Shown: piece by piece, positions 5,137-61,335 of the stretch | Layout: each line of letters begins with the position of its first letter | Position numbering within the stretch: the stretch's first letter is position 1 | Source of the DNA: Actinomycetota bacterium | Lineage (GTDB): Bacteria > Actinomycetota > UBA4738 > HRBIN12 | NCBI GenBank assembly: GCA_036555645.1 | Contig: DATBLA010000185.1 | Span: forward strand, 17,694-81,693 | Length of the DNA: 64,000 nucleotides | Reading direction: 5' to 3' | The notes under the pieces: generated by a model | The model's input: the letters and a program-made list of their open reading frames with translations, nothing else | Told to the model about the DNA's origin: nothing | Database searches by the model: none | Translations under genes and position numbers: made by a program

Positions 5137-5172
5137 CGGTTCCCGGCCCGTCGGGGCGGCTACCCTACCCAG

Positions 5173-5547
5173 GTGGAGATCCTCGGTCTCGGGGTCGACA
5201 TCTGCGAGATCGCCCGGATGGAGCGGGCCCTGGACCGGCACCCGACGATGCGCGATCGGGTCTTCACGCCCGAGGAACGGGCGTACTGCGACTCGAAGGC
5301 CCGACCGGCGGAGTCGTACGCGGGGCGCTTCGCGGCGCGCGAGGCGGTGATCAAGGCGCTCGGCGGATACCGGGGGAGGGGGTGGCAGGAGATCTCCGTG
5401 ATCCGGTCGCCATCGGGAGCGCCGGCGATCCGACTGGAGGGCAGGGCCAGGCGCCGCGCGGACGAGCTCGGGATCGCGCGGGTGCTCGTCACGATGACCC
5501 ATGAACGAGCGAGCGCCGTGGCGTTCGCGGTGGCGGTGTCCGAGTGA
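5173..5547 (+). CDS. acpS: Holo-[acyl-carrier-protein] synthase (GTG start)
   Basis: ILGLGVDICEIARMERAL... typical 4'-phosphopantetheinyl transferase, 124 aa. Confidence 0.85.
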   Translation: MEILGLGVDICEIARMERALDRHPTMRDRVFTPEERAYCDSKARPAESYAGRFAAREAVIKALGGYRGRGWQEISVIRSPSGAPAIRLEGRARRRADELGIARVLVTMTHERASAVAFAVAVSE

Positions 5548-12712: not shown

Positions 12713-13714
12713 GTGAGGGTCCTCGGCATCGAGACCTCGTGCGACGAGACCGGGGTCGCCGTCGTGGACGACGACGTGGTCCTGTCGAACCGGCTCGCGA
12801 GCCAGACCGATCTCCACGAGCGATTCGGCGGCGTCGTGCCCGAGCTCGCGAGCCGGGCCCACGTGGAGGCGCTCAACCCCCTGCTCGAGCGTGCCCTCAA
12901 CGACGCCGACACGGACTTCGGCGACCTCGACGGCGTGGCCGTCACGGTGGGCCCCGGGCTCGTCGGGGCGCTGCTCGTCGGCATCGCCGCGGCCAAGGCC
13001 GTCGCCCTGGCGACGGGGGCGCCGTTCGTCGGCGTGAATCACCTCGAGGGTCACATCCTCGCGAACGCCGTCGAGCACGGCTCCGACTTGTTTCCGTCGG
13101 TCTGCCTCATCGTCTCGGGGGGGCACACGATGCTCGTGCACATGCCCGCCCGCCATCGGTACGAGCTGCTCGGGCAGACCGTGGACGACGCCGCGGGCGA
13201 GGCGTTCGACAAGGTCGCGCGGTTCCTCGGCCTGGGGTTCCCGGGCGGGCCGGCCCTGGACCGTCTGGCTCGAACGGGCGATCCCGAAGCGATCCGGTTC
13301 CCGCGTGCGATGGCGGACTCCGGGGACTACGATTTCTCGCTCTCCGGGTTGAAGACCGCCGTGGTGCGTCACGTCCGATCCGAGCGGGCCGCGGGCCGCG
13401 AGGTCGATGCCGCCGACGTCGCCGCGTCCTTCCAGGAGGCGATCGTCGACGTGCAGGTGTCGAAGACGATCGAGGCGGCGAAACACCTGAAGGTGGACAC
13501 CGTGCTGTTGGGAGGGGGGGTCGTGGCGAACACTCGGCTGCGGGAACGGATCGAGCGGGCGGGCTCGGAGGCCGGGCTCCGCGTCCGGTTCCCGGAGGTC
13601 TCGCTGTGCACCGACAACGGCGCCATGATCGCGATCGCGGGGGCATCGCGGCTGGCCAGGGGCGACCGTTCGAGCCTGTCGATCGGCGCCGACCCGAGCC
13701 TGGAGCTCGCGTGA
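12713..13714 (+). CDS. tsaD: tRNA N6-adenosine threonylcarbamoyltransferase (GTG start)
   Basis: VLGIETSCDETGVAVV...HLEGHI Kae1/TsaD signature. Confidence 0.9.
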   Translation: MRVLGIETSCDETGVAVVDDDVVLSNRLASQTDLHERFGGVVPELASRAHVEALNPLLERALNDADTDFGDLDGVAVTVGPGLVGALLVGIAAAKAVALATGAPFVGVNHLEGHILANAVEHGSDLFPSVCLIVSGGHTMLVHMPARHRYELLGQTVDDAAGEAFDKVARFLGLGFPGGPALDRLARTGDPEAIRFPRAMADSGDYDFSLSGLKTAVVRHVRSERAAGREVDAADVAASFQEAIVDVQVSKTIEAAKHLKVDTVLLGGGVVANTRLRERIERAGSEAGLRVRFPEVSLCTDNGAMIAIAGASRLARGDRSSLSIGADPSLELA

Positions 13715-17809: not shown

Positions 17810-18493
17810 GTGGCGATGACGGAGCGGATCCGGGTGCTCCTGGCGGACGAGCAGTCGCTGTTCCGGGAGGCAGTCCGTGCCGTGCTCCAGAGCGAGGCGG
17901 ACCTGGACGTCATCGCCGAGGCTCGCGACGGGGTCCAGGCCGTCGCCGAGGCCAAGCGGGTCCAGCCGGACGTCGCCGTGCTCGACGCCAACCTGCCCAA
18001 CTGCGACGGCATCCGGGCCACGAAGCTCATCACCGAGAGCCTCGAGTCCTGTCGTGTCCTCGTCCTGGGCGTCGACGGGGACATCCGGCAGATGGTCGAG
18101 GCGCTCGAGGCGGGTGCTCGCGGGTTCCTCACGAAGGAGATCCCCCTGGCCGAGCTCATCGAGGCAGCCAGGAGCCTGTTCCGAGGGGAGACCCTGATCC
18201 CGCCCGGGATGCTGGGGCCGTTGCTCGCTCACCTCATCAACCGCCACCGTGAGGAGGAGGAGGCCCGCCGCCGGGTCTCCCGCCTCACGAAGCGCGAGCG
18301 GGAGGTGCTCGCGCTCCTCGCGTCCGGGGGGGACAACGACACGATCGCCCAGCGCCTCGTCATCAGCCCGGAAACGGCCCGCACGCACGTCCAGAACGTG
18401 CTCGGCAAGCTCGGCGTGCACTCGCGACTCGAGGCCGCCGCGTTCGTGCTGCAGACGGGGATGATGGCGGACCTGGTCGAGGCCAACGCATGA
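17810..18493 (+). CDS. LuxR/NarL-family response regulator (start GTG 17810 or ATG 17816)
   Basis: IRVLLADEQSLFREAVR...VAVLDANLPNCDG receiver plus TKREREVLALLASGGDNDTIAQRLVISPETARTHVQNV HTH. Confidence 0.8.
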   Translation: MAMTERIRVLLADEQSLFREAVRAVLQSEADLDVIAEARDGVQAVAEAKRVQPDVAVLDANLPNCDGIRATKLITESLESCRVLVLGVDGDIRQMVEALEAGARGFLTKEIPLAELIEAARSLFRGETLIPPGMLGPLLAHLINRHREEEEARRRVSRLTKREREVLALLASGGDNDTIAQRLVISPETARTHVQNVLGKLGVHSRLEAAAFVLQTGMMADLVEANA

Positions 18494-18774
18494 CCAGCGA
18501 GGTCCGTCAGCGCCGGCCGGTCCGGCGCGAGGGCGTGTGGTTGCGCGCGACCGCGGAGGAGAACGCGGTGTTCGACCCGGCCACCGGAGGCCTCCACCTC
18601 CTCAACGAGACGGCCCGCGCGATCTGGGAGCTGTGCGACGGCGCCACGACCACGGCCGAGATGGTCGAGGCCATCTGCAGCGTCACCGGCCTGCCCCGCG
18701 ACGTGGTCACCGAGGACGTCGAGCGAACGCTCACGGAGTTCGAGCGGCTCGGGATCCTTCGCTGGGAGGAGTGA
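18490..18774 (+). CDS. PqqD-family protein (RRE-type peptide-binding fold), ATGA overlap with regulator
   Basis: 94 aa. GLHLLNETARAIWELCDGATTTAEMVEAICSVTGLPRDVVTEDVERTLTEFERLGIL fits PqqD consensus. Confidence 0.7.
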   Translation: MTSEVRQRRPVRREGVWLRATAEENAVFDPATGGLHLLNETARAIWELCDGATTTAEMVEAICSVTGLPRDVVTEDVERTLTEFERLGILRWEE

Positions 18775-18776
18775 AG

Positions 18777-19058
18777 GTGGCGGCGTCCAGACCCCAGGTG
18801 CGTGGGGACCTGGTGGTGGTGGAGCTCGACGGCGAGGCCGTCGTCTACGACGAGCGCTCGGGGGAGCTTCACCATCTGAATCCGTCCGCGACCCTGATCT
18901 TCGGGCTGCTCGACGGCAGCGCCACGATCCGAACGCTGGCCGACGACATGTCCCAGGCATTCGGAGTTCCCCAGGAGGAGATGGAATCGCAGGTCAGAGC
19001 CCTCGTGGGACAGCTCCGGCGACTCGGGCTCATCGAGGGGAAGGCCGAGGTTGGCTGA
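18777..19058 (+). CDS. Second tandem PqqD-family protein (GTG start 6 nt after GGGAGGA)
   Basis: VVVELDGEAVVYDERSGELHHLNPSATLIFGLLDGSATIRTLADDMSQAFGVPQEEMESQVRALVGQLRRLGLI. Embedded in the longer track ORF 18537..19058. Confidence 0.65.
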   Translation: MAASRPQVRGDLVVVELDGEAVVYDERSGELHHLNPSATLIFGLLDGSATIRTLADDMSQAFGVPQEEMESQVRALVGQLRRLGLIEGKAEVG

Positions 19059-24188: not shown

Positions 24189-24545
24189 ATGCCCGTGTAC
24201 TTTGTCTCGCCCGCGGAAGTCGTCCGAGGCCTCCTCACCTACACCGACTGGTGGCAGCCGTCCACCGCGTCGATCCTTCAGGTGGGGGGCGGTCGTCGCG
24301 CGTCGTGGGTCGAGGACGGCGTCAACGTCGGGCTGCTGGACCGACTCGACGAGCGGGCCGAGCTGCGGCGACGGATGCAGATGCTCGGCGAGACCGAGCG
24401 GCACTTGCTGTACCTCTGGTACGTGGTGCAGGTTCCCGCCGCCGGGATCGCCCGCGAGCTGAAGATCTCCCGCCGCCAGTGCTTCCGGCGCCGCGCCTCG
24501 GCGATCCGACGGATCGTCGAGCTCGGCGAGAGCGCGGCGGCCTGA
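24189..24545 (+). CDS. Small protein with sigma-70 region-4-like HTH
   Basis: LGETERHLLYLWYVVQVPAAGIARELKISRRQCFRRRASAIRRIVEL resembles ECF sigma region 4. Locally AT-richer upstream sequence. Confidence 0.45.
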   Translation: MPVYFVSPAEVVRGLLTYTDWWQPSTASILQVGGGRRASWVEDGVNVGLLDRLDERAELRRRMQMLGETERHLLYLWYVVQVPAAGIARELKISRRQCFRRRASAIRRIVELGESAAA

Positions 24546-24600: not shown

Positions 24601-24843
24601 TTGGACACCGCAACGAGCATCACGGAGTACGTCCGCGATGAGCTGCTCGTCGGCGACGGCGAGCTGAACGCCGATACCCCGCTGTGGGACGGCGCCATCG
24701 ACTCGGTCGCCCTCATCCAGCTCATCTCGTTCATCGAGGAGCGATTCGGCGTCGAGATCGATGATGCCGAGCTGACCTCGGACCACTTCAACACGGTCGC
24801 CGACATCGCCGCCCTCGTCGATCGCAAGCTCGCCTCGGCATGA
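24601..24843 (+). CDS. Acyl/peptidyl carrier protein (DltC-like)
   Basis: 80 aa. LWDGAIDSVALIQLISFIEERFGVEI with phosphopantetheine-attachment Ser in DS context. Confidence 0.8.
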   Translation: MDTATSITEYVRDELLVGDGELNADTPLWDGAIDSVALIQLISFIEERFGVEIDDAELTSDHFNTVADIAALVDRKLASA

Positions 24844-24880
24844 GGAGCCCGCTCGACGACGGCGACCGGAGGAGGCTCGG

Positions 24881-26470
24881 ATGAGCGTCTTCGCCGTGCA
24901 CCACCTGCTCGAGCGATCGGCGGAGTCGGTTCCGGACCGGATCGCCGTTCGGTGCGACGGCGCCGAGCTCTCGTACGCGGAGCTCGAGCGCCGATCGAGC
25001 GGGATCGCGGCGACGCTCGTGGACGCCGGGGTCGAGCCGGGCGACCGCGTCGGCCTGTACGTGCCGAAGAGCGTGGACACCGTCGCGGCGATCTACGGGA
25101 TCATGAAGGCGGGCGCCGCGTACGTCCCGATCGATCCGAGCTCGCCGGTGCTTCGCGCGGCGACGATCGCAGGTGATTGCACGGTCGCGGCGATGGTCAC
25201 CACGCCCGATCGGCTGCCGCAGCTCGCGGAGGGTCTCGGGGATCACCGCCCGCGCTGTGCGCTGCTCGTGGGTGACGTGGGGTCCGCGGACGGCGGATCG
25301 ATCCCGTCGATCGGGCTGGCGGATGCGGCCGACGCGGGAGGCCCCGATCCTCGTGTTCCGGTCGTCGACACGGACCTCGCGTACATCCTGTACACGTCGG
25401 GCTCCACCGGTACGCCCAAGGGCGTGATGCTGACGCATCGCCACGCGATCACCTTCGTCGAATGGTGCGCGAGCACGATCGGCACCCAGCCGGACGACCG
25501 GTTCTCGAACCACGCGCCGTTCCACTTCGACCTGTCGGTGTTCGATCTGTACGTCGCCGCGTACGGAGGCGCGAGCGTGTCGATCGTTCCCGAGCGGCGC
25601 GCCTACTTCGGGCGCGACCTCGCCTCGTTCCTCCGCGAGGAGTCGATCACGGTCTGGTACTCGGTGCCGTCGGCGCTCATGCTGATCGCGCGGGCCGTCG
25701 ACGAGGGCGAGTCGTTCCCGTCCCTGCGCGCCGTCGTGTTCGCGGGCGAGGTCTACCCGACGAAGCATCTGCGAGCGCTCATGTCCGTCGTCCCCGCCGC
25801 GGAGCTCTGGAACCTCTACGGCCCCACGGAGACGAACGTCTGCACCGCCTACCGCGTCACCGAGCTCGAGGACGACGCGCCGATCCCGATCGGCCGGGCG
25901 ATCGAGAACACCGAGGTCGTCGCGGTCACGGACGACGGTCGGGCTGCGGGCGTCGACGAGGAGGGCGAGCTCTACGTCCGAGGGTCGACGGTCATGAAGG
26001 GGTACTGGGGCAACCCGGAGCGCTCGGCCGAGGTGCTCGTGCCGCATCCGCTCCGCAGCGACGTCGTCGATCCCGTCTACCGGACGGGCGATCTCGTCCG
26101 TCTTCGACCCGATGGCGACTACGACTTCCTCGGCCGCCGAGATCACCAGATCAAGAGTCGCGGGTACCGGATCGAGCTCGGCGAGGTCGAGGCGGCGCTC
26201 CATGCGGACCCTCGCGTGGACGTGGCGGTCGCGATCGCCGTGCCGCACGAGGACTGGGGGACCGCGATCGTCGCCTACGTCGTGCCCAAGCAGGCGGACG
26301 AGGTTCCCACGGAGATCGACGTGAAGCGTCACGCGGCCCAGCGGCTCCCGCGATACATGGTCCCGGCCCGCGTGGAGATCCGGGACGAGCTGCCTCGGAC
26401 CTCGACGGGCAAGGTCGACCGGCGCACGGTCGCCGACGAGGCGACGGCCCGGGCGTGGTCGTGGAGCTGA
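24881..26470 (+). CDS. Standalone adenylation-domain (AMP-binding) enzyme, DltA/NRPS A-domain-like
   Basis: LAYILYTSGSTGTPKGVMLTHR (A3 core), YGPTETNV, YRTGDLVR, ...GKVDRR (A10). 529 aa, no C/T/TE domains. Confidence 0.85.
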   Translation: MSVFAVHHLLERSAESVPDRIAVRCDGAELSYAELERRSSGIAATLVDAGVEPGDRVGLYVPKSVDTVAAIYGIMKAGAAYVPIDPSSPVLRAATIAGDCTVAAMVTTPDRLPQLAEGLGDHRPRCALLVGDVGSADGGSIPSIGLADAADAGGPDPRVPVVDTDLAYILYTSGSTGTPKGVMLTHRHAITFVEWCASTIGTQPDDRFSNHAPFHFDLSVFDLYVAAYGGASVSIVPERRAYFGRDLASFLREESITVWYSVPSALMLIARAVDEGESFPSLRAVVFAGEVYPTKHLRALMSVVPAAELWNLYGPTETNVCTAYRVTELEDDAPIPIGRAIENTEVVAVTDDGRAAGVDEEGELYVRGSTVMKGYWGNPERSAEVLVPHPLRSDVVDPVYRTGDLVRLRPDGDYDFLGRRDHQIKSRGYRIELGEVEAALHADPRVDVAVAIAVPHEDWGTAIVAYVVPKQADEVPTEIDVKRHAAQRLPRYMVPARVEIRDELPRTSTGKVDRRTVADEATARAWSWS

Positions 26471-26472
26471 AG

Positions 26473-27639
26473 GTGACTCGCCCCTCCGGCCTTCGCCGCC
26501 GAGCCGCGCTCGCGCTGCTCGCGCTCGGCGCGGCGACCGTGGCGGTGCTGGGTCCTCAGGTGTCGGCCTCGGCCCAGGGGGCGATCGAGGTCCGCAGCGA
26601 CATCACGTACGCGACGCACGCCGGCGACGCGTTGCTGCTCGACGCCTACCTGCCGGATGCCGGTGCGCCGGTCCCGGGTGTCATCGTCGTTCCGGGCGGC
26701 AAGTGGGTGAACATCGACAAGACGAAGCACAGCGACGTGCCCACGTACTTCGCGGATCACGGGATCGCGGCGTTCGCGATCGAGTACCGGTCGGCGACCG
26801 AGTTCCCGTACCCGGCGGCGGTCGAGGACGTCGTCGCAGCCATCCGCTGGGTGCGAGGACACGCGGCGGAGTTCGACGTCGATCCGACGCAGCTCGGGGC
26901 GGTCGGCGTGTCCGCGGGCGGCCACCTCGCGGCGCTCGCCGCCACGATGGGTTCCGGTCCGCTCGATCGAGGGGCCCGGGTCCGGGTCGTGGCCTCGTGG
27001 TCGGGCCCGATGGACCTCGAGCCGCTCGTCGACACCCCGGACGCCGACCTGCGCGAGCCGGTCCGGACGTTCCTCGGGTGCTCGGCGACCGAGGACTGCA
27101 CCGCGGTGGCTCGCGACGCCTCGCCGATCACGTACGCCGACCCATCCGATCCTCCGATGTTCCTGGTCAACGGCGAGACGGAGATCATCCCCGTCGGCCA
27201 GGCGGAATCGATGGCCCGGGCGCTGGCCGCCGCCGGTGTCGAGTCCGAGGTCGACGTCGTCGCCGGAGGCGGCCACGGGGCCGGCTACGGAGGGGGGGAC
27301 AAGGTCCTGAACCAGGCCCTGCCCTACATCCAGAGCTGGATCGCCGGGCGTCCCGCCCCCCAGGTGACGGGCACGCAGGGCACGAGCGGTTCCGGCGGCA
27401 AGGACTCCTCGGCGGCCGCTCCGACGGCGTCGCCCGCTCCGGGCAAGCAGACGGACCCGGCCTCGAAGGAGACGGGCACGGGTGCGACCGCGACGGGGTC
27501 GAACGAGACGGTGGTCGTGGCCGTCGCCATGGTCGCGCTGCTCCTGGTCGCGCTCGAGCTCGTCGTGATCGTCCGGCTTCGGCGCCGGGTCGCGGCGTTG
27601 TCGGCGGCGCGCACGGTCGAGGAGACGGGGGCATCGTGA
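26473..27639 (+). CDS. Secreted alpha/beta hydrolase (esterase/lipase-like) with Sec signal peptide and C-terminal TM anchor
   Basis: TRPSGLRRRAALALLALGAATVAVLG...ASA signal. VGVSAGGHLAA nucleophile elbow. Thr/Gly/Ser-rich linker then hydrophobic VVVAVAMVALLLVALELVVIV. Confidence 0.7.
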   Translation: MTRPSGLRRRAALALLALGAATVAVLGPQVSASAQGAIEVRSDITYATHAGDALLLDAYLPDAGAPVPGVIVVPGGKWVNIDKTKHSDVPTYFADHGIAAFAIEYRSATEFPYPAAVEDVVAAIRWVRGHAAEFDVDPTQLGAVGVSAGGHLAALAATMGSGPLDRGARVRVVASWSGPMDLEPLVDTPDADLREPVRTFLGCSATEDCTAVARDASPITYADPSDPPMFLVNGETEIIPVGQAESMARALAAAGVESEVDVVAGGGHGAGYGGGDKVLNQALPYIQSWIAGRPAPQVTGTQGTSGSGGKDSSAAAPTASPAPGKQTDPASKETGTGATATGSNETVVVAVAMVALLLVALELVVIVRLRRRVAALSAARTVEETGAS

Positions 27640-28694
27640 GCGCGGCGTCCTCGGCTCCAGCGTCGTCGTTCCCGTTCGTCGTCGCTCGCGGCCGCTCGGG
27701 GACGACGCTGCTCCGGGCGATGCTCGATGCCCACCCGGAGCTGTCGATCCCCGGCGAGTCGCACTTCGTCCCGCACTTCGTCGTCCAGCGATCGCGCTAC
27801 GAGCGTCCGGACGGGTTCGACACGAGGCGGTTCGGCCGCGAGCTGCTCGGTCGGTGGGGTTGGACGATCCGCCGCTGGAGCCTGTCGGACGAGGAGATCC
27901 TCCGGGAGATCCAGGATCCGCCTCCGAGCGAGGTCACCGAGGTGGTCCGACGCCTCTACGCGGCCCACGCGAGGGCGGAGGGCAAGGCCCGGTACGGCGA
28001 CAAGACGCCGAGCTACATCCTCCACATCGACCTCCTGGCCTCGGCCTTCCCCGAAGCGAGGTTCATCCACCTGATCCGGGACGGGCGCGACGTGGCGAGG
28101 TCGTACCTCGACGCGGATTTCGGGTCCCAGACGCTCGGGCAGGCCGCGATCACCTGGGATCGGTACGTGCGCGCCGGGCGCGCCGCCGGTGCCCGGCTCG
28201 GTCCCGAGCGGTACGTCGAGGTTCGCTACGAGGATCTCGTTCGCGACCCCGAGCGCGTCCTCGGCGAGCTCATGCCGTTCATCGGCCTCGAGTTCGACGA
28301 GCGGATGCTCCGCTATCACGAGCAGGCCGACCAGCTCGTTGGCGGCCTCTCGCACAGCGCCCACCATCGAAACCTGTACAAGCCGCCGACGCCGGGGCTG
28401 CGGGACTGGCGCCGGGAGTTCTCTCCGCGGCAGGTGGCGGTGTTCGAGGCCCTGGCCGGCGACCTGCTCGGCGAGCTCGGCTACGAGCGTGTCTCCGGCG
28501 AGCGCGGGTTCTCGGTGGCCGTGACCGCGGGCCGGCATCGCGCGGAGACGCAGATCCGCCGGGCGGGGCACGGCATCCGCGTGCGGGTCCGGCGGCAACG
28601 CCGGCGGATCATCCGATCCATCAACCAGCGCCGAACCGCGGGCGACCGCGGGACGGCAACGATCGCGTCGTCGTCGCAGACCCCACAGACATGA
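27636..28694 (+). CDS. Sulfotransferase-family protein (Stf0-like)
   Basis: FVVARGRSGTTLLRAMLDAHPE 5'-PSB-like motif and ...FIHLIRDGRDVARS 3'-PB-like motif. GTGA overlap with upstream gene. Confidence 0.7.
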   Translation: MSAASSAPASSFPFVVARGRSGTTLLRAMLDAHPELSIPGESHFVPHFVVQRSRYERPDGFDTRRFGRELLGRWGWTIRRWSLSDEEILREIQDPPPSEVTEVVRRLYAAHARAEGKARYGDKTPSYILHIDLLASAFPEARFIHLIRDGRDVARSYLDADFGSQTLGQAAITWDRYVRAGRAAGARLGPERYVEVRYEDLVRDPERVLGELMPFIGLEFDERMLRYHEQADQLVGGLSHSAHHRNLYKPPTPGLRDWRREFSPRQVAVFEALAGDLLGELGYERVSGERGFSVAVTAGRHRAETQIRRAGHGIRVRVRRQRRRIIRSINQRRTAGDRGTATIASSSQTPQT

Positions 28695-28713: not shown

Positions 28714-30021
28714 ATGAGAGGAACCGCCGCGCTTCGCCGCCGGATCCTGTCCCGGCGAGCGAAGGTCGCCGTGATCGGTCAGGGATACGTCGGGGTGTCG
28801 CTCGCATGCGCGGCCTCCGAGGCCGGGTTCCCGGTCGTCGGGACCGACATCGACGCCGGACGGATCGCGGATCTGGCTCGAGGTGTCCTGTCCGTCCCCG
28901 GCGTGAGCTCCCAGCTGTTCCGGGCCGGCGTCGAAGCTGGCAACGCCACGTTCTCGACGGACATCGGCGTCATCCGCGATGCCGATCTCGTCCTCATCTG
29001 CGTCCCGACCCCCGTCCGGGACCACGCGCCGGATCTGTCCTTCGTCGAGCAGGCCGCCCGCGACGTTGCGGCCAACCTCACGCCCGGCAAGCTCGTCGTC
29101 CTGGAGTCCACGACCTACCCGGGGACGACCGAGGACCTCATCCGGCCGATCCTCGAGACGTCCGGGCTGGGGGCGGGCCGGGACTTCCTCCTCGCGTACT
29201 CGCCCGAACGGATCGACCCGGGCAACGATGAGTTCGGACTCCGGAACACGCCGAAGATCGTTGGCGGGCTGTCGCCCGAGTCCACCGGTCTCGCCGCCCT
29301 GTTCTACGAGCAGCTCGTCGAGAAGGTCATGGTCGTCTCGTCCTGCCGGGCGGCGGAGCTCGCCAAGCTGCTGGAGAACACGTTCCGGCACGTGAACATC
29401 GCGCTCGTGAACGAGATGGCCACGCTCTGCCACGAGATGGGCATCGACGTCTGGGAGGTCGCGGAGGCAGCGGCGACGAAGCCGTTCGGGTTCATGTCGT
29501 TCTCACCCGGCCCGGGGGTGGGCGGCCATTGCATCCCGCTGGATCCCGCGTATCTCGCCTGGCAGGTGCGCCGGGACGCGGGGCATCAGTTCCGCATCCT
29601 CGAGCAGGCACAGGACATCAACGCCCAGATGCCGGGATACGTGGCGGCGCGCATCGGCGACGCCCTCAACGACGTCGGCAAGCCGGTGAAGGGATCGCGG
29701 ATCCTCGTCCTCGGCGTCGCCTACAAGGCCGATGTGGGGGACATCCGCGAGTCACCCGCGCTGAAGGTGATGACCATGCTGCACCGCCGCGGGGCGATCG
29801 TGACGTTCAACGACCCACACGCGCAGAAGGTGCAGGTGAACGGCATGCTGCTGTCGAGCGCCGAGCTCACGCAGCGGGAGCTCGCGGTCGCGGACTGCGT
29901 CGCGCTGCTCACCCCCCATCGCGCGTACGACCTCGAATGGATCGCCGAGCATGCGGCGCTCGTCTTCGATGCCCGCAACGCGTTCGGCTCGGACCGCCGC
30001 CGGAACGTCGTGCGGCTGTGA
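28714..30021 (+). CDS. Nucleotide-sugar 6-dehydrogenase (UDP-glucose/UDP-N-acetyl-hexosamine dehydrogenase family)
   Basis: VAVIGQGYVGVSLA Rossmann, ...GGHCIPLDP catalytic Cys region. Confidence 0.85.
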   Translation: MRGTAALRRRILSRRAKVAVIGQGYVGVSLACAASEAGFPVVGTDIDAGRIADLARGVLSVPGVSSQLFRAGVEAGNATFSTDIGVIRDADLVLICVPTPVRDHAPDLSFVEQAARDVAANLTPGKLVVLESTTYPGTTEDLIRPILETSGLGAGRDFLLAYSPERIDPGNDEFGLRNTPKIVGGLSPESTGLAALFYEQLVEKVMVVSSCRAAELAKLLENTFRHVNIALVNEMATLCHEMGIDVWEVAEAAATKPFGFMSFSPGPGVGGHCIPLDPAYLAWQVRRDAGHQFRILEQAQDINAQMPGYVAARIGDALNDVGKPVKGSRILVLGVAYKADVGDIRESPALKVMTMLHRRGAIVTFNDPHAQKVQVNGMLLSSAELTQRELAVADCVALLTPHRAYDLEWIAEHAALVFDARNAFGSDRRRNVVRL

Positions 30022-30299
30022 GCGCTGCCCGGACCTACGAGCGCCGTCCCGTGCTCTGGCGTCGCTGCGGCGACGAGATCCTCGTGGCGGTCCCCGAGCG
30101 GGACGGAGTCGGACGCCTGTCCGAGCCGGCCTCGCTCGTCTGGCACCTGCTGGATCGACCGTCCTCGGCGGAGGCGCTGACCGCGGAGGTGGCGTCTCGG
30201 TTCGACGATTCGGGACGGGACGTCGCGGACCGGGTCGAGGCCATGCTCGCCGAGCTCGTTGCGGAAGGATGGATCCGACCGGTGGCATCGGATGGGTGA
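30018..30299 (+). CDS. Third PqqD-family protein (GTGA overlap with dehydrogenase)
   Basis: ILVAVPERDGVGRLSEPASLVWHLLDRPSSAEALTAEVASRFDDSGRDVADRVEAMLAELVAEGWI. Confidence 0.65.
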   Translation: MSAARTYERRPVLWRRCGDEILVAVPERDGVGRLSEPASLVWHLLDRPSSAEALTAEVASRFDDSGRDVADRVEAMLAELVAEGWIRPVASDG

Positions 30300-31461
30300 C
30301 CGGCCCGTCGCCCCTCCCGAGGTCCGCCGGATCGCCTCCGCCGGTCTCCCGGACGGGCCGCGGTCGATCCGGATCGCGGCGGACCGATGGCCCACCGTGC
30401 TCTCGGGTCTCCGGTTCTGCCGGCTCACGGGCTTCGCCGTCGGCGCCTGGAAGGACGGGACGCTCGAGCTGACCGAGCTCCAGAGGGACGAGCTGCTCGA
30501 GCACCACCGCTCGGCGATGCTGCTGGCGCTGGCGATCGAGCAGCGGCTCCTGCGTCTGCAGATCTCGCTTCAGGCCGCGCAGGTTCGAGCCGTCGTGCTG
30601 AAGGGCCCGGCCATGGCCCACGCGGCCTACCCGGAGCCGTCCCTGCGCTCGTTCGGCGACCTCGATCTGCTGGTGAGCGCGACGCAGTGGCGTCGTGCCT
30701 GCCAGGTCCTTCGAACCAGCGGGTACGAACGCGACCTGCCCGAGCCTCGTCCGCGGTTCGACGAGCGGTTCGGCAAGTCGGCGACCCACACCGACGAGCA
30801 GGGGTATCAGGTCGATCTGCACCGGACGCTGGTGCTGGGCGCGTTCGGCCTGTGGCTGGATCCGGAGGAGCTCCTCGGTCACACCGGGACGTTCACGCTG
30901 GCAGGGCGGAACGTCGAGCGGCTGGACACCACCGGGATGCTCCTGAACGCCGCGCTGCACGCGAGCCTGGGATCCTCACCGCCGCTGCTGGTCCCGCTGC
31001 GGGACGTCGCCCAGCTCGCCCACGACCCCGGAGTGGACTGGGGACGGCTCGCCGCCTGGTCGGCGCGCTGGCACCTCGCGGCGCCGCTGGCGTTCGCGTT
31101 CCGGTCGGCGTCCGAGCACCTGGAGGTGGGCCTCCCGGCGGCCGCACGAGCCATGGCCGAAATCGTCTCGCCGAACGCCGAACGGCGCGCGCTGGCCGCC
31201 TACACTGAACGGCGTCGAACGGGAGGCCTGGCGCTGACCGCCACCCGGGCGATCCCCGGTGTCCGCGCAAAGGCCGCCTACACGTTCGGGATGCTCGTGC
31301 CCAGCCGCGAGTTCCTCCGGGCTCGGGCGGGACGAGGCTCGAAGCCGACCTACCGAGCCCGCTGGAGCGTGCCGATGCGGTGGGTGGGTCGTCGGCCGAG
31401 GAATCACGGAACGGAGAACCTGATGAGTGCTCATTCCATCGATCACGGGACGTCGGAGTGA
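30292..31461 (+). CDS. Nucleotidyltransferase-family protein (NTP_transf_5-like)
   Basis: VVLKGPAMAHAAYPEPSLRSFGDLDLLV: GS-x-D-h-D-h nucleotidyltransferase motif. About 389 aa. ATGGGTGA overlap with PqqD. Confidence 0.55.
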   Translation: MGDRPVAPPEVRRIASAGLPDGPRSIRIAADRWPTVLSGLRFCRLTGFAVGAWKDGTLELTELQRDELLEHHRSAMLLALAIEQRLLRLQISLQAAQVRAVVLKGPAMAHAAYPEPSLRSFGDLDLLVSATQWRRACQVLRTSGYERDLPEPRPRFDERFGKSATHTDEQGYQVDLHRTLVLGAFGLWLDPEELLGHTGTFTLAGRNVERLDTTGMLLNAALHASLGSSPPLLVPLRDVAQLAHDPGVDWGRLAAWSARWHLAAPLAFAFRSASEHLEVGLPAAARAMAEIVSPNAERRALAAYTERRRTGGLALTATRAIPGVRAKAAYTFGMLVPSREFLRARAGRGSKPTYRARWSVPMRWVGRRPRNHGTENLMSAHSIDHGTSE

Positions 31462-32238: not shown

Positions 32239-33477
32239 GTGGACGCGATCACGCTCGAGTCGGTGACGAAGACCTACCGGGTGGGCGTCGGACGGGCGCG
32301 CGTGCGCGAGATGCTGCCGCCGCCATTTGATCGCGTCGTCCGTTGGGCCGCCCCCGGGTGGTGGGCGCGCGACACGTTCAACGCGCTGGACGCCGTGTCG
32401 CTGTCGATCCCGGACGGTTCCTCGATCGGGATCGTCGGCCACAACGGCGCGGGCAAGACCACGATGCTGAAGGTGATCGCCGGTGTGACCTCGTCCACCT
32501 CGGGCCACGTGAAGGTGCACGGCCGGGTCGCCGCCCTCATCGACGTCGTCGTGGGCCTGCACCCCGATCTGACGGGCCGCGAGAACATCTACCTCCTGGG
32601 GGCGATGCACGGCCTCGGACGCAAGTCGATGCGCGAGCGCATCGACCGTGTGGTCGAGTTCGCGGAGATCGACGACCTCATCGACACCCCGCTCAAGCGG
32701 TGCTCGGCGGGGATGATCACCCGGATCGGCTTCGGCGCCATCACGGCGCTGGACGCCGACGTGCTGCTCGTGGACGAGGTGCTGTCGGTCGGGGACGCCG
32801 CCTTCCAGCGCAAGTGCGCGACGTGGCTCGAGGACTATCGGGACGGTGGCGGGACGCTGCTGTTCGTGTCGCACAACCTCGGGTTGGTCCGGAGCATGAC
32901 GAACCGCGCGATCTGGCTCGACCACGGCAAGGTGGTCTCGGACGGTGACACGAACTCCGTGCTGATGGAGTACGGCCGTGCGATGGAGCGCCGACAGGCG
33001 CCCGAGGAGGTTCACGCGAAGGGTCAGGTTCGCAAGCTCATGCGCGCCCGCGGGATGAACCGCTGGGGGATGGGCGGCGCGCGCGTCGAGGAGGTCCACG
33101 TCGGCGAGATCCTCGACGGGCTCGCGCTCGACGTCCGGATCGCGTTCGAGGCCAGCGAGGTCGATCGAGCCGTGTTCTGCGTGGGGTTCATCGACGAGAG
33201 CGGGACCGAGATCGGCGCGGCCGCGTCGCCGGAGGTGGACGTCCGCAACACCACCGGAGAGGTCACGTGCCGCATCCGTCCCCTCCCATTGCGGTCCGGG
33301 ATCTACTTCCCGGTCGTGGCGATCCTGTCGGACGACGGCATGGTGCGCGATCGCTGGCAGCTTGATCGCGCGCTCGTGGTCGACCGCAACGGCGACGGTG
33401 TGCTGCCGGACGGGTTCGGGCCGATCGACCTGCCCGCCGCGTGGATCACCGAGGGGGGCGCCGAGGTCGGCGCCTGA
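32239..33477 (+). CDS. ABC transporter ATP-binding protein (Wzt-like) with C-terminal extra domain
   Basis: GIVGHNGAGKTTMLK Walker A, CSAGMITRIGF signature, LLVDEVLSVGD Walker B. About 160 aa C-terminal extension. Confidence 0.85.
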   Translation: MDAITLESVTKTYRVGVGRARVREMLPPPFDRVVRWAAPGWWARDTFNALDAVSLSIPDGSSIGIVGHNGAGKTTMLKVIAGVTSSTSGHVKVHGRVAALIDVVVGLHPDLTGRENIYLLGAMHGLGRKSMRERIDRVVEFAEIDDLIDTPLKRCSAGMITRIGFGAITALDADVLLVDEVLSVGDAAFQRKCATWLEDYRDGGGTLLFVSHNLGLVRSMTNRAIWLDHGKVVSDGDTNSVLMEYGRAMERRQAPEEVHAKGQVRKLMRARGMNRWGMGGARVEEVHVGEILDGLALDVRIAFEASEVDRAVFCVGFIDESGTEIGAAASPEVDVRNTTGEVTCRIRPLPLRSGIYFPVVAILSDDGMVRDRWQLDRALVVDRNGDGVLPDGFGPIDLPAAWITEGGAEVGA

Positions 33478-34346
33478 TGGTCGATGCCCGCATGCCCGAT
33501 GTCGTGATCATCGGCGCGATGAAGTCCGCCACCACGACGCTGTATCGCTGGCTGGACGAACAGCCGGAGGTGTTCGTCGCGCGGTCGAAGGAGACGCGCT
33601 TCTTCACCGACCATTGGTCTCGCGGCCCCGACTGGTACGCCGGGCTGTTCGCGCAGGCGCAGGCCGGACAGCTGCTCGGCGAATCCTCGGTCAACTACAC
33701 GAATCCCCGGCTGGCGCCGGTCGCCGCCGATCGGATGGCCCAGACGATCCCCCAGGTCCGCGTGATCTACATCCTTCGCCATCCGGTCGAGCGCATCCGT
33801 TCCCACTACCGGCACGAGGTCCAGCGCCGACGAGAGGAACGAACGTTCGTCGAGGCCGTTCGCGAGCCCGGGAACCCGTACATCGGCCACAGCATGTACT
33901 TCACGTGCCTGCAGCCGTACATCGAACGGTTCTCGCGGGAGCAGATCCTCGTCATCCGGTTCGAGGACCTCGTTCGGCCGCCGTCGCCGGCATGGACGAC
34001 GGTGCTCGGGTTCCTGTCGCTGGACGAACGGGAGGCGCCCGAGTCGGCCCACAACGTCGGCAGCGAGAAGGCGCAGTGGACACGAACGATGGCCTGGGCG
34101 AAGCGGCACCGGCTCATCAGCCTTCGCCAGGTCTCGCGCATGCCGAAGTCGGTTCGCCGGGCGGGCCGGTTCGTCTTCGCCCGTGAGGGACGCGACTACC
34201 GCGCCAAGCTCGACGGCTCACGCGCTCCGCTCGACCCCGAGGTCCTGGACGGCATGTGGGCCGACGTGGCCCGCCTCGAGGAGTGGATGGGCACGGAGCT
34301 CTGGGAGCGGGACGATCAGTCGCTCTCACGGGGTCCGGCTGGGTGA
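33477..34346 (+). CDS. Sulfotransferase-domain protein
   Basis: PDVVIIGAMKSATTTLYRWL (5'-PSB) and ...IYILRHPVERIRSHY (3'-PB). Confidence 0.75.
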   Translation: MVDARMPDVVIIGAMKSATTTLYRWLDEQPEVFVARSKETRFFTDHWSRGPDWYAGLFAQAQAGQLLGESSVNYTNPRLAPVAADRMAQTIPQVRVIYILRHPVERIRSHYRHEVQRRREERTFVEAVREPGNPYIGHSMYFTCLQPYIERFSREQILVIRFEDLVRPPSPAWTTVLGFLSLDEREAPESAHNVGSEKAQWTRTMAWAKRHRLISLRQVSRMPKSVRRAGRFVFAREGRDYRAKLDGSRAPLDPEVLDGMWADVARLEEWMGTELWERDDQSLSRGPAG

Positions 34347-35263
34347 AGGACCGGGGACGAGCCTGGCTGGACGCCGTGCTCCGATGGAGCCCGGCACAGT
34401 CGATCTATCACCGACGCGCGTCCGACCGGCTCGCGGTGCTGGCGTATCACGGCGTGGACGACCCGGGCCGGTTCGAGCAGCACCTGGACCGGGTTCGGCA
34501 GGGCGCGGCGGCCGTCTCCCTGGACGACGTGCTCGCTGCCTTCTCGGGAGGCCGGTCGCTCCCGGACCGGGCCGTGCTCATCACCTTCGACGACGGGCAT
34601 CGCAGCGTCCTGGAGCTCGCGATGCCGCTGCTCATGGAGCGCGGCATGCCGGCGGTGGCCTTCGTGGTTGCCGGGGTCGTCGATTCCGATCGGCCGTTCT
34701 GGTGGACCGAGGTCATCGATCTCGCCGGGAACGGTGGGGTCGTCGACGAGATGGCCGGGCTCGATCCCGCCGATCTCGTCAGGGCGCTGAAGCGGGTCCC
34801 GGACGATCGGCGACGAGCCGCGATCGCCGAGCTGGGACGAACCGCCTCGGCGCCGGCCGCCCCCCTGCCGCAGCTCACGTCCGCCGACCTTCGGACGCTG
34901 GAGTCGGCGGGGATCGCGATCGGGAACCACACGTGGGGGCACCCGTGCCTGTCGCGATGCGACGCGGGCACGTGCCGGGCCGAGATCGAGGAGGCGCACC
35001 GAATGCTCTCGAACGTCCTGGGGCACGAGCCCCGCAGCTTCGCCTATCCCGACGGCGATCGCGACGATCGGGCGGCCGTCGTGCTGCGCGAGCTCGGCTA
35101 CGAGGCGGCCTTCCTGTTCGACCATCGGCTGAGTCCGCGGCGCCCGGCCGACACGATGGCGGTCTCGCGTCTCCGCGTGAACTCCACGACCACGCTCGAT
35201 CGGTTCGACACGATCGCGAGCGGGCTCCACCCGTCGCTGCATCGCGTGCGCGGAGGGGTCTGA
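34343..35263 (+). CDS. Polysaccharide deacetylase (NodB-homology)
   Basis: VLITFDDGHRSVL...GNHTWGHP motifs. GTGA overlap. Confidence 0.75.
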   Translation: MKDRGRAWLDAVLRWSPAQSIYHRRASDRLAVLAYHGVDDPGRFEQHLDRVRQGAAAVSLDDVLAAFSGGRSLPDRAVLITFDDGHRSVLELAMPLLMERGMPAVAFVVAGVVDSDRPFWWTEVIDLAGNGGVVDEMAGLDPADLVRALKRVPDDRRRAAIAELGRTASAPAAPLPQLTSADLRTLESAGIAIGNHTWGHPCLSRCDAGTCRAEIEEAHRMLSNVLGHEPRSFAYPDGDRDDRAAVVLRELGYEAAFLFDHRLSPRRPADTMAVSRLRVNSTTTLDRFDTIASGLHPSLHRVRGGV

Positions 35264-39768: not shown

Positions 39769-41154
39769 GTGAGCATGCTCGATGTCGCCGTTCGCAACCG
39801 GTCGAGGTGGGCGCTCCTCGGCGTGGGGCTCGTCGTCGTGGCGATGTACATCGCCATCCTGCTGTACCTCATGGAGCGGAGCACGTGGGACACGTGGGGC
39901 GCGATGGTCATCGGTCCCGTCCTGTATCTGATCAGCATCCCCGCCTTCGTCCGGCAGGCGAAACGAGAGAACGACCGGCGCGTCGTGTGGCTGCTGGTCA
40001 CCGCGCTCACGGTGAAGTTCGTCTTCTCGCTGCTCCGGTATCACCAGGCGTTCAACCTCGTGAACAAGGCCGACGCCCAGGCCTACGACGCCACCGGAAC
40101 CGAGATCGCGCTCCGGTTCCTGTCCGGGGACTACTCGACGGGCCTCGAGGGGTGGCTGGACTCCAATTTCATCCGGCTGTTCACCGGTCTGATCTACACC
40201 GTGATCCGTCCGACGGCGGCCGGGGCGTTCCTCATCTACGCGTGGCTGGCGTTCTGGGGGACGTACTTCTTCTACCGGGCGTTCGTGCTCGCGGTGCCCG
40301 ACGGGAACCGGCGGAGCTACGGGCGCTGGCTGTTCTTCCTGCCGTCGATCCTGTTCTGGCCCTCGAGCATCGGCAAGGAGTCCTGGCTCATCTTCGGGCT
40401 GGGGATCGCGGCGTTCGGGGCGGCGAAGGTGCTGTCCGAGCGGGTCATGCCCGGGCTGCTCGTGGCCGCGCTCGGCATCGGCCTGACGGCGCTCGTCCGG
40501 ACCCCGTCGGCGGTCGCGATGGGGATCGGGCTCGTCGTCGGGGGCTTCCTGCGACGGCCCAAACGCGAGCTTCGCCATCTCGGGCCGATCGCCAAGCTCG
40601 CCACGACCGGATTGTTCGTCGGTCTCGCCCTGGTGATGTTCCTCGTGCTCCAGGAATACCTCGCCCGCGAAGGACTCGGAGGACAGGACATCGACAGCCT
40701 GCTTGCGGAGTCCCAGCGTCTGACGGCCACCGGGGGCTCCGAGTTCACGCCGACGTCGATCACCTCGCCCATCGGCCTCATGATCGCGGCCGTGACGGTG
40801 CTGTTCCGCCCCTTCCTGTTCGAGGCGAACAACGCGGAGGCCGTCGTCACCGCGCTCGAGGCGTCGGTGCTCATGGTGTTCACGCTCGTCCGATGGCGAT
40901 CGATCTGGGCGGCCATCAGAGGCGTGCGTCGCATCCCGTACGCGGCCGTGGCCATCACGTACGTCGGAGCGGCGATCGTCGCGCTCTCCGCCGTGGCGAA
41001 CTTCGGGATCATCGCTCGGCAGCGAACGCTCATCTTCCCGATGTTCCTCGTGCTCCTGTGCGTGGCGCCCGCTCGTCGCGCGCGGTCGGAGGCGGACCAT
41101 CGCGCCGAGGTGCCCGCCGCCGGCACCAGGGCGCTCGTCGGAGCCCGGCGGTGA
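39769..41154 (+). CDS. Polytopic membrane protein, putative oligosaccharide repeat-unit polymerase (Wzy-like)
   Basis: About 10 hydrophobic segments. No recognisable catalytic motif. Position next to O-antigen-ligase-like gene. Confidence 0.45.
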   Translation: MSMLDVAVRNRSRWALLGVGLVVVAMYIAILLYLMERSTWDTWGAMVIGPVLYLISIPAFVRQAKRENDRRVVWLLVTALTVKFVFSLLRYHQAFNLVNKADAQAYDATGTEIALRFLSGDYSTGLEGWLDSNFIRLFTGLIYTVIRPTAAGAFLIYAWLAFWGTYFFYRAFVLAVPDGNRRSYGRWLFFLPSILFWPSSIGKESWLIFGLGIAAFGAAKVLSERVMPGLLVAALGIGLTALVRTPSAVAMGIGLVVGGFLRRPKRELRHLGPIAKLATTGLFVGLALVMFLVLQEYLAREGLGGQDIDSLLAESQRLTATGGSEFTPTSITSPIGLMIAAVTVLFRPFLFEANNAEAVVTALEASVLMVFTLVRWRSIWAAIRGVRRIPYAAVAITYVGAAIVALSAVANFGIIARQRTLIFPMFLVLLCVAPARRARSEADHRAEVPAAGTRALVGARR

Positions 41155-45108: not shown

Positions 45109-45151
45109 TCTGCGTGACCGACGATCCGCTCACATCGACCAGAGGAGACAG

Positions 45152-47019: not shown

Positions 47020-47073
47020 CCGGGGCGCGCCGCCGCCTCGCGGACTCCGGTCCACGGAACCACGATCTCCGTG

Positions 47074-55985: not shown

Positions 55986-57994
<2,009 letters not shown>

Positions 57995-61295: not shown

Positions 61296-61335
61296 CTCCC
61301 GACGCGGGCGGCGATCCGGCGCCCCCTCGAACGCC

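Follow-up and report, generated by a model that had tools for sequence, protein, structure and literature searches.

The stretch of DNA analysed here, 64 kb of an actinomycetotal genome (hereafter the window; G+C ~71%, nearly all genes on the + strand), encodes a small stand-alone carrier protein and a stand-alone adenylation enzyme which, judging from the specificity code of the enzyme, very probably load L-proline as a pair. Both genes are part of a polysaccharide locus that also contains three pairs of cytoplasmic proteins of the alpha/beta-hydrolase fold. The overall explanation proposed, to which a probability of roughly 0.6 is assigned, is that L-prolyl-S-carrier is made by the loading pair and passed by these hydrolase-fold pairs to a sulfated glycan or to another acceptor. 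In related loci a prolyl-carrier dehydrogenase gene separates carrier and ligase; no such gene is found in the window. A first-pass annotation, made from the sequence alone, had described carrier, ligase and a secreted esterase as a Dlt-like module. Its three open reading frames (ORFs) were all recovered at the same coordinates on the + strand, with coding-type G+C at third codon positions (GC3) throughout; the Dlt-like label was not upheld. The loading pair and the junction between its genes are as follows.

24601-24843, + strand: carrier, a stand-alone peptidyl/acyl carrier of 80 aa (PF00550)
24844-24880, no strand: spacer of 37 nt with the GGAGGAGG ribosome-binding site; relatives have a dehydrogenase gene of ~1.16 kb here
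24881-26470, + strand: stand-alone adenylation enzyme of 529 aa, predicted L-proline--[carrier protein] ligase (TIGR01733, PltF likeness)

Comparative counts are drawn from 168 loci fetched around relatives of the ligase and cited by their L numbers; genes in the high-GC loci among them were called with a GC3-based ORF caller. Eight loci are syntenic with the window (L080, L081, L082, L163, L164, L165, L167 and L168). Loci with a ligase identity of at least 58% form the informative close set (n = 12), and those at 40-57% a mid-range set (n = 63).

Adenylation Enzyme and Carrier

The first-pass annotation had recognized a complete adenylation-domain (A-domain) enzyme of 529 aa, and this is borne out. 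Cores A1-A10 were all located, the protein matches AMP-binding (4.5e-87) and AMP-binding_C (7.1e-19) in Pfam, and it passes the NCBIfam model "amino acid adenylation domain" (TIGR01733) with 397.8 bits against a cut-off of 317.4. Therefore, the ligase is not a fatty-acyl-AMP ligase, the identity that had been named beforehand as incompatible with carrier loading. Among solved single-domain ligases the nearest is PltF (6O6E; 3.9e-113, 382 bits), the L-proline--[prolyl-carrier] ligase of pyoluteorin, and the DltA structures follow at 219 bits. When the 116-aa pocket segment was searched alone, PltF again came first (109.8 bits), ahead of chain B of 7THN (84.8 bits), an L-proline ligase co-crystallised with PigG, and of DltA (59.1 bits).

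The ten Stachelhaus positions were mapped via the core motifs, and individual positions (239, 299, 301) are given in GrsA numbering. The resulting code, DLFSVALVCK, is of the proline type and shares 8/10 residues with PltF (DLLSLALVCK) and likewise with 7THN-B (DLFSIAWVCK). The match to DltA (3FCC, DLMSLCTVAK) is 5/10, and the Cys that DltA has at position 301 is Ala in the window ligase. This check on the specificity code, which the earlier reading had called for, favors the activation of an amino acid and speaks against Dlt. What stands of that reading is thus an activated amino acid, a loaded stand-alone carrier and a large polysaccharide locus around them.

The window code is common to 84 of 120 orthologues, including three (P0004, P0017 and P0021) that lie beside the dehydrogenase. 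More broadly, the codes that occur beside that gene belong to the family DL[FL]S[LVI]ALVCK, and in 15 such loci the code is exactly that of PltF. Several orthologues of the ligase are named "L-proline--[L-prolyl-carrier protein] ligase" by JGI, and many metagenomic orthologues are 60-75% identical. That the code is unchanged relative to orthologues which keep the dehydrogenase is the strongest argument that the substrate would be L-proline and that the oxidation step has been lost here. A literature search on the specificity-code strings returned nothing relevant.

The carrier starts with TTG, 6 nt after AAGGAGG, and matches PP-binding (PF00550) in Pfam with 8.2e-10. Its phosphopantetheine site is Ser35 (codon 24703-24705) in the motif AIDSVAL (IDSV), which aligns with the modified serine of solved carriers, so that the conserved serine on which the earlier reading depended is indeed present. 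The top solved matches are 2MY5, an unnamed peptidyl carrier protein (42.8 bits), and the acyl carrier protein (ACP) domain Bmp1-ACP (6CXT_A, 42.2 bits); Bmp1 displays prolyl and pyrrolyl groups to the oxidase Bmp3. The scores against the solved structures of PigG, PltL and DltC are 24.7, 23.6 and 23.7 bits, respectively. The "DltC-like flanks" of the first-pass annotation proved not to be specific: with the DltC equivalog NF003464 the carrier reaches 26.8 bits, short of the cut-off of 68, and it does better with other carrier models. Carrier orthologues are 59-72% identical.

The sole 4'-phosphopantetheinyl transferase seen in the window is of the AcpS type (5173-5547; PF01648, 4.8e-18), and no transferase of the Sfp type occurs near the carrier gene.

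Loss of the Prolyl-Carrier Dehydrogenase

In the relatives, the place of the 37-nt spacer is taken by a member of the acyl-CoA dehydrogenase family (381-388 aa in the syntenic loci). The order helix-turn-helix (HTH) gene, carrier, dehydrogenase, ligase is found in seven of the eight syntenic loci; L165 is alike, with no HTH gene detected upstream of its carrier. The dehydrogenase adjoins the ligase in 12/12 informative close loci and in 47/63 of the mid-range set. Thus, the unit conserved in the relatives is carrier, prolyl-carrier dehydrogenase and ligase, rather than the "triad" of carrier, ligase and esterase for which a search of other genomes had been suggested.

The closest solved matches of the relatives' dehydrogenase are the prolyl-ACP dehydrogenase AnaB (5.2e-111), Bmp3 (2.8e-90) and PigA (3.9e-86). 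Among the NCBIfam models, PigA (413 bits) and RedW (410 bits) lead, the next acyl-CoA dehydrogenase family reaching 289 bits, and the scores lie below the strict equivalog cut-offs of PigA and RedW. The relatives might carry out either an AnaB-type two-electron or a PigA-type four-electron oxidation, which these data do not separate.

A tblastn search of the whole 64-kb window with the dehydrogenase of L080 gave no homologue (best E 1.9), and a comparison of junction sequences across the relatives shows the carrier-ligase junction to be clean. The window genome appears to have lost the gene cleanly, in a lineage-specific event. With the dehydrogenase lost, the end product on the carrier would therefore be L-prolyl-S-carrier here, unless another part of the genome encodes an oxidase.

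A relative with 50% identity, L091, has a FAD-dependent halogenase of the Trp_halogenase family (5129-6373) directly upstream of a carrier, a pair of the hydrolase-fold genes described below (h2, h1), the dehydrogenase and the ligase. An asparagine synthase and a polysaccharide deacetylase also occur in this neighbourhood. The halogenase suggests a pyrrole product in that relative, with halogenation of the pyrrolyl-S-carrier.

Cytoplasmic Hydrolase-Fold Pairs

Approximately 17 kb downstream of the carrier module, three tandem pairs of genes (43220-48986) lie between a family 2 glycosyltransferase (GT2) gene and the polysaccharide deacetylase, GT4 and WecA-like genes of the glycan locus.

43220-44125, + strand: h2a, alpha/beta-hydrolase fold, nucleophile replaced by Arg (GTRWG), catalytic His lacking (TIGR03101 hydr2_PEP, 94 bits)
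44089-45108, + strand: h1a, alpha/beta-hydrolase fold, Cys130 in the nucleophile elbow (GSCYG), His290 (TIGR03100 hydr1_PEP, 57.5 bits)
45152-46063, + strand: h2b, Arg-type pseudo-hydrolase (GTRWG; TIGR03101, 91.1 bits), 50% identical to h2a
46060-47019, + strand: h1b, Cys-type hydrolase (GSCFG, IHGF; TIGR03100, 71 bits)
47098-48042, + strand: h2c, Arg-type pseudo-hydrolase (GARWG; TIGR03101, 78.6 bits)
47997-48986, + strand: h1c, Cys-type hydrolase (GSCFG, IHGF; TIGR03100, 70.3 bits)

Alignment places Cys and His at the catalytic positions of all three h1 proteins (G-S-C-[YF]-G and IHGF), and all three h2 proteins have G-[TA]-R-W-G without the catalytic His. Across 21 h1 homologues Cys130 is invariant and His290 nearly so. 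In an AlphaFold2 model of h1a, with a predicted local distance difference test score (pLDDT) of 79.6, Cys130 sits between strand 123-129 and helix 131-142. No transmembrane (TM) segment or signal peptide was found in any of the six proteins. Sequence and fold searches with h1 and h2 returned generic alpha/beta hydrolases only.

Homologous pairs that share these Cys and Arg (or Lys) signatures stand directly beside dehydrogenase, ligase and carrier in nine loci (L001, L003, L007, L086, L087, L091, L093, L096 and L099) from Actinomycetota, Proteobacteria and unclassified metagenome-assembled genomes, and the Cys/Arg motifs are kept in more than 20 cassette-adjoining homologues from several phyla. 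Two pairs adjoin the cassette in L003, and in L001 the ligase is followed by esterase, h2, h1 and sulfotransferase. Where the window has three pairs, the syntenic relative L080/L166 has two. From this gene content, the coherent evolutionary unit appears to be h2-h1, dehydrogenase, ligase and carrier; the h1/h2 pairs are likely better-conserved partners of the loading pair than the esterase, and h2 may be regarded as a putative pseudo-enzyme partner of h1.

Predicted Secreted Esterase and Search for a Membrane Conduit

26461-27639, + strand: BD-FAE/carbohydrate-esterase-like serine hydrolase, predicted to be secreted and C-terminally anchored (PF20434)
39769-41154: orphan polytopic protein of 461 aa with ~10 TM segments, without a Pfam match even at E<0.5

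The hydrolase is the 3' part of the ORF 25462-27639, with candidate GTG starts at 26455, 26461 and 26473. It matches BD-FAE (PF20434; 7.8e-40, 137.1 bits, cut-off 26.8), Abhydrolase_3 (4.2e-21) and also Peptidase_S9, and its solved relatives are the carbohydrate esterase 6TKX and the acetyl xylan esterase 6XYC (2e-26), followed by the GH43-CE protein 6MLY. A Ser-His apparatus is present in the motifs GVSAGGH (149-155) and GGGHG (269-273). The signal-like N-terminal segment and the C-terminal TM anchor claimed in the first-pass annotation are supported by hydropathy, which shows a hydrophobic segment at 15-31 followed by SASA|QG and a TM segment at 351-371 followed by RLRRR. Both, along with a low-complexity linker, are conserved across the orthologues. 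The topology that can be read from these features (signal peptide, outside catalytic domain, anchor) would put the catalytic domain beyond the reach of a cytoplasmic carrier. Most likely, the esterase is not part of the loading chemistry and de-esterifies or remodels the exported polymer.

The stop codon of the ligase overlaps the start of the esterase, whose own stop overlaps the start of a sulfotransferase gene. The esterase follows the ligase in L080, L163, L164, L165, L167 and L001. No esterase stands at this position in L081, and L168 has a second carrier gene there. Among the eight syntenic loci it is therefore present in five, a remnant in one and missing from two, and the dispensability of the esterase removes it from the conserved unit. 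The remnant, in L082 (4565-5050), is a 161-aa ORF with only the signal peptide, linker and anchor of a BD-FAE esterase, the catalytic domain being deleted.

The absence of DltB and DltD, as stated in the first-pass annotation, holds for every window protein scanned with Pfam, none of which matched MBOAT or DltD; hydropathy of the genes outside the Pfam scan revealed no further polytopic protein. The 10-TM protein listed above has 366 homologues, all annotated as hypothetical. Its AlphaFold2 model (pLDDT 88.3) gives weak matches to GT-C proteins (AglB, STT3, AftB, PglB, ALG9 and ArnT; E ~0.02-0.07, probability ~1, TM-score 0.4-0.5). As a candidate for a hidden MBOAT or acyl conduit it was ruled out on the basis of the model, which looks GT-C-like and has no MBOAT match. 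For the transfer to an extracytoplasmic acceptor that had been proposed, no membrane conduit was found, and the cytoplasmic hydrolase-fold pairs are the better candidates.

Proposed Mechanism

The ancestral cassette would have comprised the carrier, the prolyl-carrier dehydrogenase, the ligase and one or more cytoplasmic h2-h1 pairs. The ligase would activate L-proline with ATP and thioesterify the phosphopantetheine arm on Ser35, in the manner of PltF/PltL, PigI/PigG and CloN4/CloN5. Where the dehydrogenase is present, as in the relatives, the prolyl-S-carrier would be oxidised to a pyrrolyl or dehydroprolyl thioester. The Cys of h1 could then take the acyl group from the carrier and pass it to an acceptor in the cytoplasm, with h2 as a non-catalytic partner. 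The group would be accepted by the lipid-linked sulfated glycan that the surrounding ~42-kb locus produces, at a hydroxyl or an amino function, and the anchored esterase would act on the exported polymer. CloN7/CouN7 provide a precedent for the transfer, in that the 3'-OH of a sugar receives proline-derived pyrrole-2-carboxylate from a carrier. The fold of CloN7 is that of an alpha/beta hydrolase.

The choice of acceptor follows from genomic position. In at least eight syntenic loci the cassette is fixed between the Wzz-kinase gene and the sulfotransferase and UDP-sugar dehydrogenase genes, and glycan genes also flank the cassette in loci of Proteobacteria, Planctomycetota and Desulfobacterota (L003, L020, L025, L034 and L099). 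This fixed position within the clade, together with the glycan neighbours in other phyla, makes a lipid-linked glycan the most likely acceptor. The arrival of the acyl group on the glycan by way of h1/h2 is given slightly less than an even chance.

Several points weigh against this explanation. A substrate call from a ten-residue code is probabilistic, and positions 239 (F) and 299 (V) of the code differ from PltF. The dehydrogenase may be encoded outside the 64-kb window. The role given to h1/h2 is drawn from co-location and motifs only, the fold search having returned generic alpha/beta hydrolases, and the named NCBIfam families have cut-offs that neither the ligase nor h1 or h2 reaches. Furthermore, the esterase gene overlaps the ligase gene and is retained by most close relatives, so that a direct functional link may exist. 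Finally, several distant relatives (L007, L091 and L096) have no obvious glycan locus, so that the acceptor need not be a polysaccharide and may differ between lineages. The neighbours in L007 are a thiolase-like protein, a CN hydrolase and an aminotransferase, and L091 has the halogenase described above. The notion that the cassette always lies in glycan loci is weakened by these same three loci.

Alternative Explanations

The reading closest to the first-pass annotation is a Dlt-like route, in which a DltC-like carrier would be charged with D-alanine or a different amino or aryl acid, and the group would then be moved across the membrane and attached outside the cell, without DltB, by the anchored esterase acting like DltD. 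Such a route would suit an esterase that is extracytoplasmic and membrane-tethered according to hydropathy and whose gene overlaps that of the ligase. The partial scores of the ligase against DltA models are sizeable (303.1 bits for NF003417 and 291.6 bits for TIGR01734), which is accounted for by the FDLSV lineage shared by DltA and PltF-type ligases; both nevertheless miss the equivalog cut-offs (476 and 559.85), as does the carrier score for DltC, and the nearest relatives of the ligase are the L-proline ligases PltF and 7THN-B, not DltA. The code agrees with DltA in only half of its positions and lacks the Cys at 301; the esterase is of the BD-FAE/Abhydrolase_3 type, not DltD-like, and is missing or truncated in 3/8 syntenic loci that keep carrier, dehydrogenase and ligase. 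No MBOAT, DltD or DltX-like conduit was found in the window, and the one orphan polytopic protein is GT-C-like. Membership of the Dlt system was rejected because of the model scores, the code and the lack of both DltB and DltD, and on present sequence evidence a Dlt-like extracytoplasmic route is largely excluded, being the least probable of the explanations considered. A milder departure would keep the architecture and change the substrate, the replacement of L/L by F/V at positions 239 and 299 shifting the preference of the ligase to some other small amino acid, cyclic or aliphatic. The code is indeed unlike that of PltF at two of its ten residues, and it was not found in the literature searched. 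The same DLFSVALVCK, however, occurs in orthologues that keep the prolyl-carrier dehydrogenase, F at 239 recurs in 7THN-B, itself an L-proline ligase, and position 299 varies freely among V, I and L across the dehydrogenase-linked family, all of which leaves a different substrate improbable.

It is about equally improbable that the module is a decaying remnant, functionless after the loss of the dehydrogenase and merely not yet degraded. The window is the sole one of 13 informative close loci without the dehydrogenase, and members of the block are being lost in relatives as well, for example the esterase in L081, L082 and L168. A remnant is difficult to reconcile with two intact ORFs that retain every catalytic core, the Ser, good ribosome-binding sites and an unchanged specificity code, or with three h2-h1 pairs here versus two in the syntenic relative; moreover, many more distant lineages have the same code and no adjacent dehydrogenase. 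Carrier and ligase are 67-75% identical to those of L163/L164, equal to the neighbouring glycan genes, and conservation at the level of the neighbours argues for continued use. A small-molecule pathway, in which the loading pair and h1/h2, as thioesterase-like off-loaders, would make a diffusible proline or pyrrole metabolite or signal and the co-location with glycan genes would be regulatory or accidental, is unlikely, though less so than the preceding explanations. The absence from the 64-kb window of any polyketide synthase (PKS), condensation domain, halogenase or further nonribosomal peptide synthetase (NRPS) module weighs against it, as do the fixed position of the cassette among glycan genes in at least eight syntenic loci, the h2-h1 pairs likewise amid glycan genes, and the glycan genes flanking the cassette in the other phyla cited above. 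On the other side, all characterised PltF/PltL/PltE-type cassettes feed natural products, some distant cassettes stand beside a halogenase, a thiolase-like protein or an aminotransferase instead of glycan genes, and the actinomycete loci L009, L010 and L014 lie amid further A domains.

Glycan Locus and Genomic Setting

The glycan locus extends over ~42 kb (13.7-55.5 kb) between tsaD (12713-13714) and groES-groEL (55986-57994), and is preceded by a housekeeping block of rplM, glmM, glmS, acpS, nnr and alr, then tsaD. tsaD and groES are neighbours in many Actinobacteria. The locus opens with an epimerase, a histidine kinase, LuxR-type regulators, two PqqD genes, a CapD-type dehydratase and the Wzz/BY-kinase. 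The small HTH gene, carrier, ligase, esterase, sulfotransferase, UDP-sugar dehydrogenase, PqqD, NTP_transf_5 and an ABC-2 transporter come next, followed by a second sulfotransferase, a polysaccharide deacetylase, three GT4 genes, GNAT, the 10-TM protein, Wzy_C and GT2. The six alpha/beta hydrolases, a second deacetylase, GT4, the WecA-like gene, a DegT aminotransferase and an HprK-related kinase complete the locus. The two genes that border the module are as follows.

24189-24545, + strand: small HTH protein of 118 aa with weak likeness to sigma-70 region 4, directly upstream of the carrier gene
27636-28694, + strand: sulfotransferase (Sulfotransfer_3; PF13469, 2.8e-40), translationally coupled to the esterase and syntenic in relatives

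The HTH protein gives weak scores with TIGR02980/TIGR02937 and E=0.013 with Sigma70_r4_2; in L080, L082, L163, L164, L167 and L168 a protein 67-75% identical to it occupies the same position. A scan around the module found no promoters, and terminators were at chance level.

Two sulfotransferases (27636-28694 and 33441-34346), two polysaccharide deacetylases (34376-35263 and 48990-49787) and a UDP-sugar dehydrogenase (28714-30021) are encoded in the locus. This gene set suggests a polymer that is sulfated, contains uronic acid and is possibly N-deacetylated/N-sulfated, following a heparan-like logic.

Three PqqD-family genes, NTP_transf_5 and the HprK-related kinase A lie at 18490-19058, 30018-30299, 30292-31461 and 53941-54804, inside the polysaccharide locus. 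These parts are otherwise typical of clusters for ribosomally synthesized and post-translationally modified peptides or for lasso peptides, and their arrangement is conserved in L080, L164 and L165. The kinase scores 122 bits with TIGR04352, below its cut-off of 200. After groEL, a second sugar-nucleotide cluster (58187-63856) encodes an epimerase, a C-methyltransferase (Methyltransf_13/14), a nucleotidyl transferase, a PIG-L deacetylase, a dTDP-sugar 3,5-epimerase and a DUF4910/M28-like protein. Among the very few minus-strand genes is a 220-aa ORF (54801-55463, - strand) with a weak match to a twin-arginine translocation signal (E 3.4e-4) and no other family.

Significance

Proline-loading carrier cassettes are known only as entries to pyrrole natural products, and here such a cassette is fixed in a polysaccharide locus and is accompanied, in several phyla, by the uncharacterised Cys/Arg pairs of hydrolase-fold proteins. 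The loading pair itself is of a known kind; its glycan context, the association with Cys/Arg pairs and the lineage-specific loss of the oxidase appear to be undescribed in the literature searched, which also yielded nothing relevant on prolyl- or pyrrolyl-decorated exopolysaccharide. More speculatively, and with the odds against it, the cassette could represent a widespread undescribed system for the carrier-dependent, cytoplasmic acylation of glycans with proline-derived groups, namely unoxidised L-proline in the window genome and pyrrole-2-carboxylate or dehydroproline in the relatives, with the esterase editing outside the cell.

These observations hint at a possible new chemistry for the decoration of cell-surface glycans, and a role is suggested for the long-unexplained "hydrolase 1 / hydrolase 2 / ligase" genes of exopolysaccharide loci. 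The clean loss of the dehydrogenase would offer a natural comparison of prolyl versus pyrrolyl decoration. In addition, the analysis corrects a tempting mis-annotation, whereby any stand-alone A domain and carrier near envelope genes is called "Dlt-like."

Comparison with Known Systems

With DltABCD, the window shares a stand-alone A domain and a small carrier serving a cell-envelope polymer, as well as an extracytoplasmic, membrane-tethered protein of the hydrolase fold encoded nearby. In contrast to DltABCD, neither ligase nor carrier reaches the cut-offs of the DltA and DltC models, the pocket has a Pro-type code, DltB and DltD are absent, and the esterase is of another fold family and dispensable in relatives. 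The esterase itself is similar to the BD-FAE/carbohydrate esterases 6TKX, 6XYC and 6MLY in passing PF20434 and in having GxSxG and a C-terminal His. It differs from them by a linker rich in Pro/Ser/Thr/Gly and a C-terminal TM anchor, and its acidic residue aligns as NGETE, not GDAD.

The loading pair is of the type II NRPS style, and its closest resemblance is to the proline-loading and oxidation set PltF/PltL/PltE of pyoluteorin and the comparable sets PigI/PigG/PigA, RedM/RedO/RedW, Bmp4/Bmp1/Bmp3 and AnaC/AnaD/AnaB, all of which combine a stand-alone A domain with a stand-alone carrier. PltF is the nearest solved structure, eight of ten code residues agree, the carrier resembles Bmp1-ACP, and the relatives of the window possess the matching dehydrogenase. 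The window, in contrast, has no dehydrogenase, halogenase, PKS or NRPS partner, and its module is located inside a sulfated-polysaccharide locus with Cys/Arg hydrolase-fold pairs.

In clorobiocin and coumermycin biosynthesis, CloN4, CloN5 and CloN3 make the pyrrole-2-carboxyl-S-carrier from proline, CloN2 transfers the pyrrole-2-carboxyl group onto CloN1, which is a second carrier, and the 3'-OH of the sugar is then esterified by the acyltransferase CloN7/CouN7 (PMC11218499, PMC8748450). In the literature searched, no other case is described in which a dedicated acyltransferase moves a proline-derived acyl group off a carrier protein and onto a sugar hydroxyl. Instead of a polymer, a small aminocoumarin glycoside serves as the acceptor there. 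Among the relatives, L168 has a second small carrier gene after the ligase (7633-7911; weak PP-binding match, 66% identity to the window carrier by tblastn), which occupies the place of the esterase and sulfotransferase, and L086 has an 81-aa ORF without a Pfam match after the ligase (7385-7630). Both recall the second carrier of the aminocoumarin pathways (CloN1/CouN1).

The remaining comparison is with the exosortase A (XrtA/PEP-CTERM) cassette, since TIGR03098, TIGR03100 and TIGR03101 are the best or second-best NCBIfam matches of the ligase and of the six h proteins, and hydrolase 2 and hydrolase 1 alternate here, too, in an exopolysaccharide locus. For the ligase, the exosortase A-associated ligase TIGR03098 is the second-best match (341.6 bits, cut-off 592.35). 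The h1 proteins score 57-71 bits with TIGR03100 (cut-off 168.45) and the h2 proteins 79-94 bits with TIGR03101 (cut-off 202.75); all window scores are thus below the cut-offs, and the proteobacterial locus L003 behaves likewise. Literature searches on the three families, and on PEP-CTERM with ACP, hydrolase and decarboxylase, returned nothing relevant, and Haft 2006 makes no mention of the TIGR03098/03100/03101 genes. The features that define this cassette family are an exosortase/PEP-CTERM context and a pyridoxal phosphate (PLP)-dependent decarboxylase beside the ligase. No exosortase, PEP-CTERM or PLP decarboxylase is among the Pfam and NCBIfam matches of the window genes, and the relatives of the window differ from the exosortase A cassette in having the prolyl-carrier dehydrogenase. 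Given the below-cut-off scores, this gene content and the dehydrogenase of the relatives, the window cassette is best seen as a sister system of the exosortase A cassette rather than as a member of it.

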